Notes: generated by a model from the sequence alone, not told the origin. DNA of 64,000 bases from Nanobdellota archaeon (GCA_027334715.1 DAHWUG010000001.1:277993-341992), one strand, 5' to 3'; shown: positions 35,006 to 51,447, numbered from the stretch's first letter. Program-made: numbers and translations.

Positions 35006-35077
35006 GGCGGTTGTAGTTCAGTGGCAGAACATCCGACTGTGGCTCGGGAAACGAGAGTTCGATTCTCTCCTTCCGCC
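35006..35077 (+). tRNA. tRNA-His (anticodon GUG) with encoded G-1; acceptor stem carries two U-U mismatches
   Basis: G-1 plus GCGGTTG...CTTCCGC-C73; D-stem GTTC/GAAC; anticodon stem TCCGA/TCGGG with loop CTGTGGC; T-arm GAGAG-TTCGATT-CTCTC. Confidence 0.6.
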
Positions 35078-35103
35078 CTGTTCAACATAGTTCAGAGTAG
35101 AAA

Positions 35104-35592
35104 ATGAAAATAGGATTCAAAAAAATGAGACTGAAAGAGGATAGTAGAACGGTTCAAATAGAAGGAGAAATAGTTAATCCATTTAAAATTTACAAAGAGA
35201 AAATTAATATTGAAATGTCTATATTGCAACTAGCTAAAGTTTGGGGGACTGATAGAAAAGCTGTTAGTAAAGTAGAAAATGAATTTGGGTCAGAGGAATT
35301 AGAAGATTTATGTGAAGAGACAAAAGAAGAGATAAAAAACTTTCCAATAGAATTCTGGAACAAGGAAATTAAATGTGGATATGTTAATACAACAGATAAA
35401 ACAAATGATAGAGATAGCCCAGATATGAAAACACAAATTGTTAGAATTTATGGAGAAGATTTATGTGGGTGGGATAATGAAGGGATTTTAGTAGAAATAC
35501 CAAAGGAAATTTATGATAAAGAACTGAAAGGGAAGAAAATTGAAATGATTTTAGAACCTGTCTTAATTAAACTAAGGGAAAACAAAAAATGA
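35104..35592 (+). CDS. hypothetical protein
   Basis: ORF track. Confidence 0.35.
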   Translation: MKIGFKKMRLKEDSRTVQIEGEIVNPFKIYKEKINIEMSILQLAKVWGTDRKAVSKVENEFGSEELEDLCEETKEEIKNFPIEFWNKEIKCGYVNTTDKTNDRDSPDMKTQIVRIYGEDLCGWDNEGILVEIPKEIYDKELKGKKIEMILEPVLIKLRENKK

Positions 35593-35656
35593 CAGCTAAC
35601 CAGAACATTATTGGCTTGGTTACCCCTTCCGTCCTTGATATAAAAAAGAGAATAAA

Positions 35657-36799
35657 ATGAATACAGAACCAGTAAAGGGATTCAGGGATTTTTCAGGCAA
35701 GGAAGCTGAAAACAGAGCAGAGATGAGAAAGATAATAGTCAGGACTTTTGAAAGATATGGATTTGAACCTGTAGAGACGCCGATAATTGAACAGGAAGAA
35801 TTTGTTCGTGGAGAGAACAAAGAAGATGAAGCTATTTCAGACATATTTAAATTGCAGGACAAGGGAAAAAGAAATCTTGCTTTGCGTTATGAATTTACAT
35901 TCCAGTTGAAAAGAATTATGAAAAACAAAAAGCTTCCTTACAAAAGATACCAGATTGGCGAGGTTTTCAGGGATGAACCTGTTTCTTCAAACAGATTCAG
36001 GCAGTTTACGCAGTGCGATGTTGATATTGTTGGTTCAAATGTTAAAAATGAAGCAGAAATTTTGGCAATGACCAGTGAGCTGATGAGAGAGTTTGGCATA
36101 GAGCCAATAATTCTTGTAAACAACAGGAGACTTCTTAATGAAATACTCAATGATTTGAAAATAAAGGAAAAAGACAGGGAACAAGTGCTGAGGGAGATTG
36201 ACAAGTTTGGCAAAATAGGAGAAAAGGAAGTTATTTCTAATCTTAAAAAATTAAATGCTGATAAAGTTATTAAAGTGCTTAAAAGTGGCGAAGCTTACTT
36301 TAAAAAATTCCAAGCATACAAGGAAATCATTTCTCTGATAGAATATTGCAGACTTTACGGCGTCAAAATATTATTTTCACCTACTGTTATTCGGGGGCTT
36401 AGCTATTACAATGAGAATGTTTTTGAGGTAAAAGCAAAAAATATAAGTGAAACACTTGTTGCAGGGGGAAGCTATATGTTTGACGGCATTCAATGCACAG
36501 GAATTTCTTTCGGCCTGGATAGATTAGCTTTGATATCTAAGCTGAGATTTGAAAGAGAAAAATATCTTATTATCTCATTGGGGGAAGATGAAGCGGCAAT
36601 TGGCTTGGCACGAAAGCTTAGGGAGAAAAACAGAGGCAAAGATGTAACTGTATACTACGGAAAACCATCAAAAGCGCTTGATTATGCAAATTCTTACGGC
36701 ATAAATGAGGTTATTTTTGTCGGAGAGAAGGAAATCAAGGAAAAAAAGTTCAAAGTCAAAGACATGAAAACAGGAAAGGAAAGTGCACTTAAGTTATAA
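35657..36799 (+). CDS. hisS: histidyl-tRNA synthetase (class II; compact, 380 aa)
   Basis: Motif 1/2 region GFRDF, RYEF..QLKR, YQIGEVFRDEP, RQFTQCDVDIVG; C-terminal class-II anticodon-binding domain. Confidence 0.85.
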   Translation: MNTEPVKGFRDFSGKEAENRAEMRKIIVRTFERYGFEPVETPIIEQEEFVRGENKEDEAISDIFKLQDKGKRNLALRYEFTFQLKRIMKNKKLPYKRYQIGEVFRDEPVSSNRFRQFTQCDVDIVGSNVKNEAEILAMTSELMREFGIEPIILVNNRRLLNEILNDLKIKEKDREQVLREIDKFGKIGEKEVISNLKKLNADKVIKVLKSGEAYFKKFQAYKEIISLIEYCRLYGVKILFSPTVIRGLSYYNENVFEVKAKNISETLVAGGSYMFDGIQCTGISFGLDRLALISKLRFEREKYLIISLGEDEAAIGLARKLREKNRGKDVTVYYGKPSKALDYANSYGINEVIFVGEKEIKEKKFKVKDMKTGKESALKL

Positions 36800-36800
36800 A

Positions 36801-36819
36801 AAAAGATTATTGGTCCTTA
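36801..36819 (+). repeat. 19-nt direct repeat aaaagattattggtcctta (copy A)
   Basis: Perfect match to 38029-38047; the two copies bracket the CDPS-like and HIT-like genes. Confidence 0.6.
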
Positions 36820-36843
36820 TTCTGGTGCATAAACGGTTGGTAA

Positions 36844-37530
36844 ATTAAGTTAGGCATTATTAAAGGTGCAACAGAAGAAGAACTAAAGTCAAAAAAGTTC
36901 AATATTTATCTGGGTATAAGCTTAGGAAACAAGTGGTTTACAAAAGATAATACAAGAGAACATTTAAACTTCGCTTTGAAGTATACTAAAGATAGAATTG
37001 GATTACTTGTTGCAGATACTCTTCACGCAATTAATTATGAGATTAGGAATAAAATTTCTTATGAAAAAAGCTATAAAAAATCTCTTCAAAAAGGCACAAA
37101 GTTTATAGAAATTTTAAAGGAATTAATTGAAGAGTTGCCAGAAAAAGAACAAAAGAGAATTGATATAATAAGATGGGATGATATTAAAAAAGAGAAATTA
37201 TATAGAGAATTATTCCCCATTGCTAAAAAAGAGTTTAGAGAGGATAATACTTTCAAAGAAGCTATTTTAGATATAATCAGAGAACAGGTCAAACAAGAGG
37301 ACAGAATATTTAGTAAAAAAGATATAGAAAGATTTGGAGAATATATAATTGAAGAACTTCCCGAACTAGCTAATGGCTTTATTTTCAAAAATACTTATTA
37401 TAATTGTTATTTATATCCTTATTATAGCAAACTTGCTCAATTTGTTGAAGATTTACAACAAGGAAAAATCTTCACGCAAATCAGTGAAAAACTTGTAAAG
37501 AGGTATAATGTTTTTGTAGAATTAAGGTAA
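36844..37530 (+). CDS. cyclodipeptide synthase (CDPS)-like protein, tRNA-dependent; start codon unresolved
   Basis: Open frame from the stop at 36841: ...KKFNIYLGISLGNKWFTKDNTREHLNFALKYTKDRIGLLVADTLH (compare AlbC ALIGISAGNSYFS...VVYVDTH), later EYIIEELPEL (Y-x3-E) and YYNCYLYPYY; 228 aa; first ATG/GTG/TTG only at 36976. Confidence 0.55.
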   Translation: MKLGIIKGATEEELKSKKFNIYLGISLGNKWFTKDNTREHLNFALKYTKDRIGLLVADTLHAINYEIRNKISYEKSYKKSLQKGTKFIEILKELIEELPEKEQKRIDIIRWDDIKKEKLYRELFPIAKKEFREDNTFKEAILDIIREQVKQEDRIFSKKDIERFGEYIIEELPELANGFIFKNTYYNCYLYPYYSKLAQFVEDLQQGKIFTQISEKLVKRYNVFVELR

Positions 37531-37599
37531 GTAGTCTTATTAATTTGAAAGTCCTAACAAATGACTTGAACTGATTAAGATGAGTAAATTTTAAGTCAC

Positions 37600-38022
37600 T
37601 TATTGAATATCATCTTTTAAATAATCTTTAACTTTCTTAGCTAATTTTTCCACTTCTTTTATATTCCGGGTTGTCTTCATATTTTTTTGTGCATATTTCA
37701 ATATTTCTTTCAAAGAATTATTTTTAATTTTATTCATCCAATAATATCTTGGAAGAATCCAAATATGAAAGTTAAACTTTGTTCTTTCTTCTTGAAAAAT
37801 AGAAACTTCTTTAATTTTAAGAACAATTTTCATTGTATCACGGATTTTGCGAAGAATATCAATCATTTCATAAGATTCTTCTTTTGTAAAATCAGTTATT
37901 GACTTTACTTTACGCTTTGGAGCTAAAATGAAAAAACCAGATATTGGAATTTCCCAATCCTGACTAACTTTAAAATTATCTGTTTCATAAATAGTAATAT
38001 CAAATAGCTTTTTTAAAGTCAT
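37600..38022 (-). CDS. HIT-superfamily-like protein (degenerate histidine triad)
   Basis: FNFHIWILPRY block in place of HxHxHxx; 140 aa. Confidence 0.35.
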   Translation of the reverse strand: MTLKKLFDITIYETDNFKVSQDWEIPISGFFILAPKRKVKSITDFTKEESYEMIDILRKIRDTMKIVLKIKEVSIFQEERTKFNFHIWILPRYYWMNKIKNNSLKEILKYAQKNMKTTRNIKEVEKLAKKVKDYLKDDIQ

Positions 38023-38028
38023 ATTATT

Positions 38029-38047
38029 AAAAGATTATTGGTCCTTA
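38029..38047 (+). repeat. 19-nt direct repeat aaaagattattggtcctta (copy B)
   Basis: Identical to 36801-36819. Confidence 0.6.
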
Positions 38048-38081
38048 AAATTTAAAAACCTTTCTCAACTAGTTAATCTCT

Positions 38082-38906
38082 ATGCCTAAAAAATCTGGTG
38101 AAAAAAATAATAATATAATTGAAGTAAAAAATCTGGTGAAAAAATTTGGGGATTTCATTGCAGTCGCAAACATATCCTTTGAGGTAAAAAAAGGGGAAAT
38201 ATTCGCTTTTCTCGGCCCAAACGGGGCAGGAAAGACAACAACAATAAAAATGCTTACAACTCTTCTGGAACCTAATTCTGGGACAGTAAGTATTAACGGA
38301 TTTAATCCACAAAAGGAAAAAGACGAGACAAGAAAATCTTTTGGAATAGTTTTCCAGGATCCTAGCCTAGATGATGACCTTACTGCTTTGGAAAATATGG
38401 AATTTCACGGAATATTCTATGGAGTCCCTGACAAAATAAGAAAAGAAAGAATTGAATATCTTTTGAAATTTGTCGGATTGTGGGAGAGAAAGGATGACCT
38501 TGTCAAAAGATTTTCAGGAGGAATGAAGAGAAGGCTGGAAATCGCCCGTGGCTTGATACATCATCCCAAAATATTGTTTCTTGACGAGCCAACTTTGGGC
38601 CTTGATCCCCAGACAAGAAATCATTTATGGGAGTACATTAAAAAAATGAACAAAGAGGAAGGAATGACTGTTTTTCTAACCACTCATTACATGGATGAAG
38701 CAGACAGGGTTGCTGACAGAATAGCTGTGATAGACCATGGAAAAATAATCAATCATGGAACAGCCTCGCAATTAAAAAAAGAAACCAAAACAAATAATCT
38801 TGAGGATGCATTCTTGAAACTTACAGGACACGGAATCAGGGATGAGGATGCTTCTGCCAAGGATAATTTGAGAAGCCATGCCAGATTGTGGAGGGGAAGA
38901 AAATGA
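38082..38906 (+). CDS. ABC transporter ATP-binding protein (ABC-2/DrrA-like)
   Basis: Walker A GPNGAGKTT, signature FSGGMKRRL, Walker B LFLDEPT. Confidence 0.85.
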   Translation: MPKKSGEKNNNIIEVKNLVKKFGDFIAVANISFEVKKGEIFAFLGPNGAGKTTTIKMLTTLLEPNSGTVSINGFNPQKEKDETRKSFGIVFQDPSLDDDLTALENMEFHGIFYGVPDKIRKERIEYLLKFVGLWERKDDLVKRFSGGMKRRLEIARGLIHHPKILFLDEPTLGLDPQTRNHLWEYIKKMNKEEGMTVFLTTHYMDEADRVADRIAVIDHGKIINHGTASQLKKETKTNNLEDAFLKLTGHGIRDEDASAKDNLRSHARLWRGRK

Positions 38907-39649
38907 ATTCTCCTGTTTACATAATGTGGCTGAGGCAGGTAAAGAAATATCTGCGCTCAAAATCAAGGATAATCGGCTCCCTTGGACAGCCTCTTCTGTT
39001 TCTGTTTGCACTTGGATTCGGATTGGGAAGTTTGTACAAGCAGGCAGAAGGCGGAAGTTTCATAGATTTTCTTGTTCCTGGAATTATTGCAATGAGCATT
39101 TTATTCACGGCCATGTTTGCAGGAATAGAAGTTATCTGGGACAGGCAGTTTGGTTTTTTGAAAGAAACTTTGATTGCGCCTGTTTCAAGATTCAAAATAA
39201 TGCTCGGAAGAACTTTTGGAGGGACAACAACTGCAATTTTTCAGGGAATAATTGTCCTGATTATTTCAGTTATAATAGGATTCAGACCTGATTTATTGCT
39301 GCTTCCTGTTGCACTTCTTTTTATGATTTTAATAGGATTATTCTTCACTTCATTAGGAACAGCCCTTGCTTCCAAGCTTGAAGATATGCAGGGATTCCAA
39401 TTAATAATGAACTTTCTGATAATGCCTACATTCTTCCTTTCAGGGGCGCTTTTCCCATTAGGCACTGCACCGGAAGCATTGAAGATAGTTTCTTACTTCA
39501 ATCCATTGACATACGGTGTTGATGGACTAAGGGGGGCTTTAACAGGTGTTTTACAATTTGGAATTCCAGTTGACTTTATTGTCTGCTTTGCCTTAACAGG
39601 CATTGTCCTATGGATTGGAAGCGAAATGTTCTCAAAAATACAGATATAA
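38888..39649 (+). CDS. ABC-2 type transporter permease
   Basis: 6 TM; overlaps the upstream ATPase gene. Confidence 0.7.
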   Translation: MEGKKMNSPVYIMWLRQVKKYLRSKSRIIGSLGQPLLFLFALGFGLGSLYKQAEGGSFIDFLVPGIIAMSILFTAMFAGIEVIWDRQFGFLKETLIAPVSRFKIMLGRTFGGTTTAIFQGIIVLIISVIIGFRPDLLLLPVALLFMILIGLFFTSLGTALASKLEDMQGFQLIMNFLIMPTFFLSGALFPLGTAPEALKIVSYFNPLTYGVDGLRGALTGVLQFGIPVDFIVCFALTGIVLWIGSEMFSKIQI

Positions 39650-50003: not shown

Positions 50004-50151
50004 ACTCTCGTTTATCCAGTTTATGGTATGGCTTAAGGGATCTTAAAAGAGAAATAAGAAAATCAACCTAACTATATTATTTTTAATTAGGTTTCGGCGT
50101 GGATAGAATTTTTAAAGAAACATTTTTCAATATATAACCTATTCAATTGAC

Positions 50152-50457
50152 ATGGAAATAAAAGAAGTTAAAGAATTCCTTGAGAGCCTTACACAGTATA
50201 ATATCAGTTTCGACCCACATTTTTACAAAAGGGCCGGAGAGAGGCCAGTAAATGAAAGCATGGTCAGAAATTTTTTATCCAGAATAGATAAGTTGGAGAA
50301 AATTGAAATAGGGAATAATGACAGATTTAAATTGTGGTTTAGAATGAGTAGAAAATATTCATTAGTTTTAATAATTGAAATCAGCATCCAAAAACATTTA
50401 AAAGTAATAAGTGCTTGGAATACCAATAAGAAATGGCAAAACCAATTAAGACGATAG
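50152..50457 (+). CDS. DUF4258-like protein (putative toxin component)
   Basis: HFYKRAGERPVNESMVRNFL pattern; paired with DUF2283. Confidence 0.4.
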   Translation: MEIKEVKEFLESLTQYNISFDPHFYKRAGERPVNESMVRNFLSRIDKLEKIEIGNNDRFKLWFRMSRKYSLVLIIEISIQKHLKVISAWNTNKKWQNQLRR

Positions 50458-50789
50458 ATTACGATCCTGAAAATGACATATTCTTCATTTCTAATGGAGA
50501 TAAGGTAAAAGCTTCTCTAGATATTGGAGATTTCGTCTTGGATGTTAATCATAATGATTTAGTTTGCGGAATAGAGATAATAGATGCAAGTGAGAATCTT
50601 GGAATTGCTAAGAGAGTACTAGAGGATATTAAAAATATAAAGATGTCTGTTAATTATAAGCCTAACCATGTTTATGTCCTTCTTATGATAGCTTTTAAGA
50701 AAGAGGATAAAGCAGTTAACGTTCCTATTCCATTAACTCTTGATTTGGGGCATAAGACCGATAAAACACAAGTTTTAGTGTACAATTAA
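50433..50789 (+). CDS. DUF2283-like protein (putative antitoxin component)
   Basis: IDYDPENDIFFISNGDKV...DLVCGIEIIDAS. Confidence 0.45.
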   Translation: MAKPIKTIDYDPENDIFFISNGDKVKASLDIGDFVLDVNHNDLVCGIEIIDASENLGIAKRVLEDIKNIKMSVNYKPNHVYVLLMIAFKKEDKAVNVPIPLTLDLGHKTDKTQVLVYN

Positions 50790-50846
50790 CTTTCAACTCC
50801 CAGCATGTGGATTGTTATTCATAAGATTTCAAGAATTTTAATAATC

Positions 50847-51356
50847 TCAAATAACTCCTATTTGGTTTCTATCTTCGTAAATTATCTTCCCAATTTTTCT
50901 TTTTGTATTAAAATTGTAAAGGATTTTATTTTTTTCATCATCTTTCCTGAAACATACTTTTTTAATAAGTTTTATTTTTTTAAAATCCAAAAATCTCTTA
51001 CTCACTTTAAATATAGTTTTTGCAGGATTTAACATTTCTCTATGAAATTTTAATAAAGTTTTCTCGTATTTTTCTTTCCCAAGTCTCTTAAAATAAAATT
51101 TTATTCCTTTCTTACTTTCTGGAGAGAAAAGCCAAGAACTGATTTTATTTTCTTTTTTAACCCATCTAGAATATTCTTTTGCCCATTCTTTTCCGAATCT
51201 TTTACCGGTTTCTTTATTAAGGAGTTCGTCCATCTTGACAAATATGCCTTTATTCCTATATAGATATCTGTAATAAATTTCTTTTTTCATATTATTATTA
51301 ATTGATTCAAACTTATAAATTAACCATTTAAAACTAAGTCTTTGTAAACCATACAA
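50847..51356 (-). CDS. hypothetical basic protein
   Basis: ORF track. Confidence 0.35.
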   Translation of the reverse strand: MYGLQRLSFKWLIYKFESINNNMKKEIYYRYLYRNKGIFVKMDELLNKETGKRFGKEWAKEYSRWVKKENKISSWLFSPESKKGIKFYFKRLGKEKYEKTLLKFHREMLNPAKTIFKVSKRFLDFKKIKLIKKVCFRKDDEKNKILYNFNTKRKIGKIIYEDRNQIGVI

Positions 51357-51447
51357 TAACGCTCAAACTAGGCGTGGGCGATTTCGTTTAAAAGTATTAA
51401 ATGAAAATCACAATAATCTTTAAAAAGAGTTAAAAATAAGTATTTTT

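Follow-up and report, generated by a model that had tools for sequence, protein, structure and literature searches.

A probable foreign insertion beside hisS in a DPANN archaeon carries a cyclodipeptide synthase frame and a degenerate HIT-like gene

Layout of the hisS locus

In a 64,000-nucleotide stretch of a Nanobdellota archaeon genome (GCA_027334715.1, DAHWUG010000001.1:277993-341992; referred to in its entirety as the window, with positions counted from its first letter) a frame for a cyclodipeptide synthase (CDPS) stands immediately downstream of hisS, the gene for histidyl-tRNA synthetase (HisRS), and is accompanied by a divergent HIT-like gene. An earlier inspection of the same DNA – the sequence-only reading – had taken this neighbourhood as a sign that the enzyme makes a histidine-containing product. 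Our data bear on that proposal and on the manner in which the CDPS frame came to lie where it does.

The tRNA-His gene (anticodon GTG, 35007..35078, + strand; identified by ARAGORN) is an ancestral neighbour of hisS and lies outside the insert described below. hisS itself (35657..36799, +) encodes a protein of 380 amino acids (aa) with a Pfam PF13393 match and an HGTP_anticodon domain. Beyond it come the left copy of a 19-nt direct repeat (36801..36819, +), a segment of 1,209 bp to which no strand is assigned (36820..38028), and the right copy of the repeat (38029..38047, +). The segment holds the CDPS frame (36844..37530, +), which comprises 228 codons and a stop and belongs to the ParcuCDPS clade of the XYP subfamily, and a gene for a probable HIT-superfamily protein of 140 aa (37600..38022, –). 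A symmetric A/T box, AAAATTTAAAAA (38047..38058, no strand given), adjoins the right repeat and is conserved in the empty sites of relatives; it is followed by a transporter unit (38082..39649, +) consisting of an ABC ATPase gene (38082-38906; Pfam ABC_tran, 125 bits) and an ABC-2 permease gene extending to 39649. The tRNA gene, hisS, the 228-aa frame with its motifs, the HIT-like open reading frame (ORF) and the 19-nt repeats all lie precisely where the sequence-only reading had placed them.

The direct repeats and the empty sites

The 19-mer AAAAGATTATTGGTCCTTA occurs exactly twice in the window, at 36801-36819 and 38029-38047. No further copy with three or fewer mismatches is present in the window, and two matches were obtained in none of 100 shuffles. 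Only two exact direct repeats of at least 19 nt exist in the whole 64 kb: AAAAGATTATTGGTCCTTA and a 20-mer situated 40 nt further on.

The origin of the repeat emerges from comparison with two relatives, L037 and L038, whose HisRS proteins are 82% and 77% identical to that of the window; L037 comes from the same ENA metagenome assembly as L001, which is another copy of the window locus. In both relatives only ~60 nt separate hisS from the downstream genes for the ABC ATPase and permease, and the CDPS and HIT-like genes are absent. The spacer at these empty sites reads, in order, stop codon, one homologue of the 19-mer, AAAATTTAAAAA, ~25 nt and ATG. In a four-way alignment the window tracks its relatives up to the end of the left 19-mer, at which point it diverges, and rejoins them from the start of the second 19-mer. 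The alignment of the junctions thus indicates that the 19-mer is native spacer – the left copy being the hisS-proximal part of the original spacer between hisS and the ABC genes – and that it was duplicated when the 1,209 bp were inserted.

Composition sets the segment apart. Its GC content of 26.0%, against a window mean of 35.2% (standard deviation 2.9), makes it the lowest region of the 64 kb, and the GC content of third codon positions (GC3) is 0.21 in the CDPS gene and 0.17 in the HIT gene, as compared to 0.33-0.37 in the flanking genes. The two copies of the repeat are identical, whereas the orthologous spacers of the relatives differ from one another at several positions, which argues that the insertion is recent. 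Two more distant relatives, L039 and L041, carry other genes after hisS, with neither CDPS nor HIT among them; the region is a variable one. Within the insert the CDPS and HIT-like genes are the only two ORFs and are convergent. Target-derived direct repeats, an empty site in relatives and a deviant composition are all found together, and the proposal that the repeats bracket a horizontally inserted cassette is borne out by the empty sites of L037 and L038 and by the trough in GC content.

The box AAAATTTAAAAA, conserved in L037 and L038, stands ~30 nt from both the HIT ATG (38022, –) and the ABC ATG (38082, +). We infer that it is a TATA box, and it may serve in both directions for two near-leaderless transcripts.

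In one other genome a homologue of the CDPS (L014, 6456-8387) has as its neighbours a gene for a tyrosine recombinase (Phage_integrase) and a short ORF that resembles a recombinase, a context that suggests that the CDPS is able to travel on integrative elements. A tblastn search of the 64-kb window with the L014 tyrosine integrase and the neighbouring recombinase-like protein found no homologue, a weak test that employed only these two queries. No relatives of the CDPS and HIT families were found in IMG/VR, so a viral or mobile-element origin is unsupported.

The cyclodipeptide synthase frame

The 228-codon frame is a true cyclodipeptide synthase by family, fold and catalytic residues, as the sequence-only reading had supposed. 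It scores 39.7 bits against Pfam PF16715 (gathering cut-off 27) and 57.9 bits against the NCBIfam model TIGR04539 (cut-off 45), and a database search with the frame returned 152 homologues, nearly all of 226-237 aa and covering 100% of the frame. The best matches in the PDB are the seven entries of ParcuCDPS, namely 7qb8 for the wild type together with mutants; phmmer aligned residues 3-228 of the frame with residues 3-229 of that enzyme (E 1.2e-36). An AlphaFold (AF2) model built from a 21-sequence alignment has a mean confidence (pLDDT) of 96.6, and when it was compared to the PDB by Foldseek all of the top 50 matches were CDPSs, with template-modelling (TM) scores of 0.84/0.86 to 7qb8, 0.67/0.72 to AlbC (3oqv) and 0.75 to Rv2275.

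In ParcuCDPS the catalytic residues are S26, D58, Y167, E171 and Y191, and the mark of the XYP subfamily is Tyr-Pro at the positions equivalent to AlbC 202-203, where the NYH enzymes have Tyr-His (PMC7613923). The window frame has S26, D58, Y167, E171, Y191 and P192 in ParcuCDPS numbering, and the pair Y191-P192 places it among the XYP enzymes. The corresponding residues of AlbC are S37 for S26, Y178/E182 for Y167/E171 and Y202 for Y191. The frame has the motifs LGISLGNKWF and VADTLH, the pair Y167-x3-E171 and the Tyr-rich block NTYYNCYLYPYY. Among 116 aligned sequences of the clade, the window's included, S26, D58, Y167 and E171 are present in 116/116, and Y191 and P192 in nearly all (P192 in 114/116).

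Were the frame translated, its mechanism would, by homology, proceed through transfer of the aminoacyl group of a first aminoacyl-tRNA to Ser26, polarised by Asp58; a second aminoacyl-tRNA would then give a dipeptidyl-enzyme, and Tyr167, Glu171 and Tyr191 would aid cyclisation to a 2,5-diketopiperazine. No tailoring gene for a cyclodipeptide oxidase, cytochrome P450, methyltransferase, 2-oxoglutarate (2OG)-oxygenase or prenyltransferase is adjacent to the frame, which stands between hisS and the HIT-like gene, with the ABC transporter beyond the latter.

Absence of a canonical start codon

One feature of the frame escaped the sequence-only reading: it has no canonical start. The frame opens with ATT at 36844, immediately 3′ of a TAA stop (36841-36843), and between that stop and TTG 36976 it contains no ATG, GTG or TTG. 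TTG 36976, the first canonical start, is downstream of the codon for the catalytic Ser26, and the frame has no canonical initiation codon upstream of that residue. The public gene call (P0001) begins at this TTG and encodes 184 aa, from which Ser26 would be lost; this gene model needs correction, the 184-aa call being a truncation of the 228-codon CDPS frame that starts with ATT. Two upstream starts, GTG 36825 and TTG 36837, were considered and rejected: both are out of frame and end at TAA 36846-36848. A product of fusion or read-through from hisS is ruled out as well, given that hisS is in a different frame.

ATT 36844 aligns exactly with Met1 of the proteins P0008, P0010 and P0019, for which the simplest explanation is that an ancestral ATG underwent one G-to-T substitution. 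The region around the ATT is identical in three assemblies: the window contig, an ENA k141 contig and a Logan contig. Comparison with the gene of the closest homologue (L043, 70% aa identity), in which synonymous sites are near saturation, gives a ratio of nonsynonymous to synonymous substitution (dN/dS) of 0.07 for the 44 codons before the TTG, 0.19 for the rest and 0.16 overall; the low value in the first 44 codons indicates that the N-terminus was coding until recently.

How translation begins elsewhere in the window is relevant. Across the genes of the window, TATA-like motifs are most frequent 25-28 nt ahead of the ATG, and just 7/63 genes have a Shine-Dalgarno-like motif; the genome thus looks mostly leaderless. 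No TATA-like box was found at leaderless distance from the ATT of the CDPS frame. With the ATT at the position of Met1 and no canonical start before the catalytic Ser, expression of the CDPS is doubtful: judging from these features, the frame would be either weakly translated from AUU or very recently silenced.

The HIT-like gene

The second gene of the insert is probably a divergent member of the HIT superfamily, as had been surmised. Its product scores 24.0 bits against PF01230, just above the cut-off of 21.5, and a profile of its family matches Hint-like proteins in the PDB at E 0.005, with an alignment that shows the motif. The model of the protein has a pLDDT of 65.8, and the Foldseek matches listed at E ≤ ~0.03 are all to HIT-superfamily proteins (TM ~0.45-0.5). 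In place of the HxHxH triad stands N84-F-H86-I-W88-I-L, and the N-x-H-x-W pattern is invariant in nine members of the family. The central histidine of the triad is the nucleophile in Hint and Fhit; the window protein would be a small protein of HIT fold in which only this nucleophilic histidine is kept.

Homologues of the HIT-like protein adjoin aminoacyl-tRNA synthetase or tRNA genes in a variety of contexts. In L045 the gene is divergent from hisS; in L046 and L047 it overlaps the stop codon of the CysRS gene; in L048, L049 and L052 it lies downstream of MetRS and a tRNA_bind protein; and in L050 and L051 it has a YrdC/TsaC-like gene on one side and RtcB with archease on the other. No CDPS occurs in these HIT-family loci (L045-L052), and no HIT gene in the CDPS loci. 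These contexts – few in number, and from partly related loci – point to a possible function of the N-x-H-x-W family close to the chemistry of aminoacyl-adenylates or diadenosine tetraphosphate (Ap4A), or in aminoacylation or tRNA metabolism.

Substrate and product

ParcuCDPS produces cyclo(His-Pro) (44% of product) and cyclo(His-Glu) (56%). It selects histidine in its P1 pocket by means of Y55, E174 and Y189, and among these it was mutation of Y55 that had the greatest influence (PMC7613923). The window CDPS has L55, E174 and Y189: it matches ParcuCDPS at two of the three positions and does not reproduce the His pocket. L-E-Y is the commonest pocket class among the 116 sequences, with 29 members; Y-E-Y, that of ParcuCDPS, has 20. 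The hint of histidine afforded by homology to ParcuCDPS is therefore weakened by the leucine at residue 55. To go by these residues, a His-containing product is possible, and a first substrate other than His is at least as likely. The L-E-Y class takes in most of the closest, largely DPANN, homologues, and our literature search found no characterised member of it; the L55-E174-Y189 class is a reasonable target for enzymology aimed at mapping CDPS specificity.

Genomic contexts of related synthases

A critical issue is whether proximity to the His-charging genes carries meaning. tRNA-His stands upstream of hisS in four relatives that have no CDPS (L037, L038, L039 and L041), and the tRNA-His/hisS pair is thus ancestral. 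CDPS loci were surveyed with one genome per GTDB species, which gave 34 loci, of which 33 are full-length and one is a fragment of 32 residues; flanks of up to 8 kb on each side were searched by tblastn with the window HisRS, HIT, ABC and other proteins, and by ARAGORN. No hisS, no tRNA-His and no homologue of the 140-aa HIT protein was found around these 34 loci. Nor do hisS, tRNA-His or HIT occur on the contigs that carry the nearest two CDPS homologues (L043 and L044), where the synthase genes adjoin SepF and ribosomal protein L15e.

Genes for aminoacyl-tRNA synthetases (aaRSs) and other tRNA-related functions make up ~6/64 of the immediate neighbours of CDPS genes at 35 other loci: MetRS and PheRS-beta (L031), DtdA (L003), GatD (L024), MnmA (L005) and a PolyA_pol-type nucleotidyltransferase that we take to be a CCA-adding enzyme. 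An informal comparison with the annotated flanks of L001, L039 and L041, where aaRS frequency is ~8%, leads us to regard this number as background. At L031, in Candidatus Forterrea multitransposorum (CP045477, 4818-10434), PheRS alpha and beta stand on one side of the CDPS homologue and MetRS on the other; like those of L003, L024 and L005, it is an isolated case.

The families shared by at least two of the 64 neighbours are GNAT acetyltransferases (4), SET-domain proteins (4), DNA ligase (2), Ham1 (2) and T2SSF (2). None of the tailoring classes named above for the window frame appears among the 25 neighbour families shown for the 64 neighbours at 35 loci. GNAT acetyltransferases and SET-domain proteins recur, at four loci each, directly beside the CDPS (L003-L035), and these proteins may be partners of the synthase or enzymes that tailor its product.

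A second insert and neighbouring genes

The CDPS cassette is not the only segment to have entered this locus. In L037 tRNA-His directly abuts hisS; in the window, alignment to L037 reveals an intervening segment of 556 bp (35080..35635, +), small and low in GC. Its limits are set by an 11-nt direct repeat that corresponds to the 3′ end of the tRNA: CCTTCCGCCCT lies at 35069-35079 and CCTTCCGTCCT at 35625-35635, and the motif occurs at no other site on either strand of the window. The segment encodes ORF162 (35104-35592, +; GC 28.8%), a protein of 162 aa and unknown function with no Pfam match and, among the fetched loci, no homologue except in L001 and L002, which are other assemblies of the same locus. 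In L038 a different cargo of ~1.9 kb (583-2506) occupies the tRNA-His 3′ site: its four ORFs include one for a ParE-family toxin, and it closes, immediately ahead of hisS, with TACCCCTTCCGCCCT, which repeats the 3′ end of the tRNA. The presence of different cargoes at the same site in the window and in L038 marks the 3′ end of tRNA-His as a recurrent hot spot of integration.

The host genes on either side show a mosaic kinship. The ABC ATPase and permease of the window are 92-93% identical to those of L038 and 79-80% to those of L037, whereas for HisRS the order is reversed (77% to L038, 82% to L037); these opposite ranks imply that lineages have recombined at the site of the insertion or close to it. 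HisRS itself scores 124.6 bits against PF13393 (tRNA-synt_His), has the anticodon-binding domain and has homologues in Pacearchaeota and Nanoarchaeota at 70-82% identity. Many close homologues of this 380-aa protein are named 'ATP phosphoribosyltransferase regulatory subunit' (HisZ) at NCBI. The window protein obtains 255 bits with the hisS model (TIGR00442), which is under the equivalog cut-off of 286.75, and 116 bits with the HisZ model; given the far higher score with the hisS model and the presence of the anticodon-binding domain, the label HisZ is probably a misannotation.

Two further observations concern the window at large. The ABC ATPase gene contains, in its 5′ part, the 20-nt exact direct repeat TAAAAAATCTGGTGAAAAAA (38087-38106 and 38125-38144). 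With a spacing of 38 nt the copies are read in two frames, as PKKSGEK and as VKNLVKKF; relatives have counterparts of both parts, and the repeat is probably a coincidence or the outcome of local conversion. The second-lowest GC region of the window (~50150-51400, ~27%) contains overlapping ORFs of 101 and 118 aa and an opposite-strand ORF of 169 aa, and is possibly a further foreign islet of small size, for instance a toxin-antitoxin pair.

Discussion

We interpret the locus as the product of a recent insertion, of foreign origin, that placed a CDPS frame and a degenerate HIT gene beside hisS, with the proximity of the CDPS to the His genes being a consequence of the landing site; we put the probability of this reading at about 0.8. 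The ancestral order in the DPANN host, which to judge from the closest HisRS homologues is Pacearchaeota/Nanoarchaeota-like, would have been tRNA-His, hisS, ABC ATPase, ABC permease, and an AT-rich foreign segment of 1,209 bp would recently have entered the 60-nt spacer between hisS and the ABC genes, duplicating 19 nt as it did so.

Several points weigh against this interpretation. Neither a recombinase, nor a transposase, nor terminal inverted repeats were found in or beside the insert, and a 19-bp duplication is long for the target-site duplication of a transposase. The closest CDPS (70%, L043) and the closest HIT protein (77%, L048) are unlinked, the donor is unsampled, and the two genes may have come in one after the other. 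Some CDPS homologues do stand beside aaRS or tRNA genes, and HIT homologues often do, such that a loose connection to aminoacyl-tRNA metabolism is possible; moreover, the closest characterised enzyme uses His-tRNA. Finally, the three assemblies that agree on the ATT may share the same reads.

Might the cassette instead be ancestral, and its absence from L037 and L038 the result of loss through recombination between the 19-nt repeats? Direct repeats can drive precise deletion, and both empty sites retain exactly one equivalent of the repeat. But two independent and precise losses would be needed, L039 and L041 are equally without CDPS and HIT after hisS, the GC and GC3 of the segment are far under those of host genes, the repeat copies are identical though the orthologous spacers have diverged, and an original duplication event would still have to be invoked; we consider loss very improbable. 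We give still less credence – next to none – to an artefact of assembly, in which a low-GC fragment of another organism would have been spliced in at a short shared repeat. The abruptness with which composition falls, exactly at the repeat boundaries, is what such an error would look like, but the left junction is identical in the window, ENA k141 and Logan contigs, the ENA and Logan contigs encode the six genes from ORF162 to the ABC permease in the same order and with 100% aa identity, an overlap of 19 nt is far below the k-mer lengths used, and the right repeat runs correctly on into the conserved spacer and the ABC gene.

If insertion is accepted, the question becomes whether the cargo does anything and, if so, whether histidine is involved. 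That tRNA-His, hisS and the CDPS form a functional module, their adjacency reflecting the production of a His-containing cyclodipeptide, was the central proposal of the sequence-only reading. It has attractions: ParcuCDPS, the closest homologue to have been both characterised and solved, makes cyclo(His-Pro) and cyclo(His-Glu); two of its His-pocket residues, E174 and Y189, are kept; the insert sits 1 nt past the hisS stop, and co-transcription is conceivable; and in L045 the HIT homologue and a hisS gene lie side by side in divergent orientation. The adjacency was, however, made by an insertion that the closest relatives do not have, beside a tRNA-His/hisS pair older than the insertion; linkage to hisS or tRNA-His is seen in 0/35 other CDPS loci; residue 55 is Leu and not Tyr, which places the window enzyme in the L-E-Y class and not in the Y-E-Y class of ParcuCDPS; and the CDPS has no canonical start codon. 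The step from adjacency to a His-containing product is not supported in view of the ancestral pairing of the two His genes and the lack of linkage at the 35 other loci, and the module is in our view unlikely. A still more elaborate picture – slightly less probable again, and speculative – would make CDPS and degenerate HIT a mobile module tied to aminoacyl-tRNA and aminoacyl-adenylate metabolism in DPANN, with the HIT protein acting on aminoacyl-AMP or Ap4A, or nucleotidylating the diketopiperazine, and the CDPS drawing on the His-tRNA of the adjacent hisS, starting at AUU and yielding a His-containing cyclodipeptide for symbiont-host signalling.

A more serious contender, and one that we hold to be quite possible without favouring it, is that the CDPS is a fresh pseudogene whose start was lost (ATG to ATT) before or soon after arrival, leaving the HIT-like gene as the sole possible functional cargo. 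Leaderless initiation requires a strong start codon. The genome appears mainly leaderless, no ATG, GTG or TTG precedes Ser26, a TAA lies directly 5′ of the ATT, and the ATT is without a TATA-like box at leaderless distance, whereas the HIT ATG is ~30 nt from the shared A/T box. On the other side, 228 codons are otherwise intact in DNA of 26% GC with every catalytic residue kept, and the overall dN/dS of 0.16 means that inactivation, if any, was very recent; translation table 11 permits ATT as a rare initiator, and a single-base error of sequencing or consensus is possible.

On the insertion reading, which we prefer, the locus has two broader messages. It illustrates how misleading adjacency can be when seen in one genome only, the CDPS having come to lie beside the His-charging pair through a recent insertion. 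It also offers a clean and datable case in which small cassettes with no recombinase of their own have entered the genome of a DPANN archaeon, with a duplicated target upstream and another downstream of hisS.

Relation to known systems

The sequence-only reading had further regarded a tRNA-linked secondary-metabolite module as new for an archaeon of small genome; for the presence of a CDPS such novelty is not supported. Among GTDB species representatives the clade occurs in 18 DPANN archaea and 16 bacteria, the latter mostly CPR/Patescibacteria, and NCBI and JGI already name its members 'tRNA-dependent cyclodipeptide synthase' in Pacearchaeota and Patescibacteria. No study dedicated to archaeal or DPANN CDPSs was found in the literature searched, which is not proof of novelty given the database annotations. 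Both the enzyme type and the way it works are established, as is its occurrence in ultra-small organisms, and the locus is no new type of system.

As an insertion, the cassette recalls the att-type islets that arise by tyrosine-recombinase integration at tRNA genes, with which it shares duplication of the target, empty sites in relatives and foreign composition; the second insert of the window shares with them, in addition, a position exactly at the 3′ end of tRNA-His and a repeat of the tRNA end. It differs in that neither window insert carries an integrase and in that the CDPS cassette targets an intergenic spacer and not a tRNA. Its HIT-like product is to be compared with the Hint/Fhit/Ap4A-phosphorylase branch: it passes the Pfam HIT threshold, matches in profile and predicted fold, and has the central histidine and the hydrophobic-hydrophobic-Pro-Arg that follows, but its triad is without the first and third histidines, the similarity is very weak (E ~0.005) and confidence in the model is moderate.

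Among the synthases, AlbC, Rv2275 and YvmC – NYH enzymes of the albonoursin, mycocyclosin and pulcherrimin pathways – share with the window CDPS the Rossmann-like fold related to class-Ic aaRSs (TM 0.67-0.75), the catalytic Ser and the Y-x3-E motif. Identity to them is below 20% (phmmer E 0.027 to AlbC), the window enzyme is XYP and not NYH, and its gene has no neighbour that encodes a cyclodipeptide oxidase, a P450 or any other tailoring enzyme. Much closer are the annotated CDPSs of Pacearchaeota, Woesearchaeota and Nanoarchaeota (P0010, L003-L007, L019), with 45-70% identity over the full length, the same L55-E174-Y189 pocket and, again, no tailoring neighbours. These differ from the window gene in having ATG starts and in their contexts (SRP54, DNA ligase, SepF, ribosomal protein L15e and others), none being beside hisS or a HIT-like gene.

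The nearest experimentally studied system is ParcuCDPS of Parcubacteria bacterium RAAC4_OD1_1 (PDB 7qb8; CDPS no. 90 of Gondry 2018; Sutherland 2022). It is separated from the window enzyme by an aa identity of only ~35-40% and by Tyr in place of Leu at residue 55, and the window gene differs further in its archaeal (DPANN) host, in being without a canonical start and in its position in a recent cassette. The Asp58-Ser26 dyad and a split alpha3/alpha4 helix are typical of ParcuCDPS, unlike the NYH enzymes (PMC7613923). With this enzyme the window CDPS has in common the XYP subfamily, a length of ~230 aa, a stand-alone gene in an organism of ultra-small genome, and a shared numbering that runs through S26, D58, G84, Y167, E171, E174, Y189, Y191 and P192.

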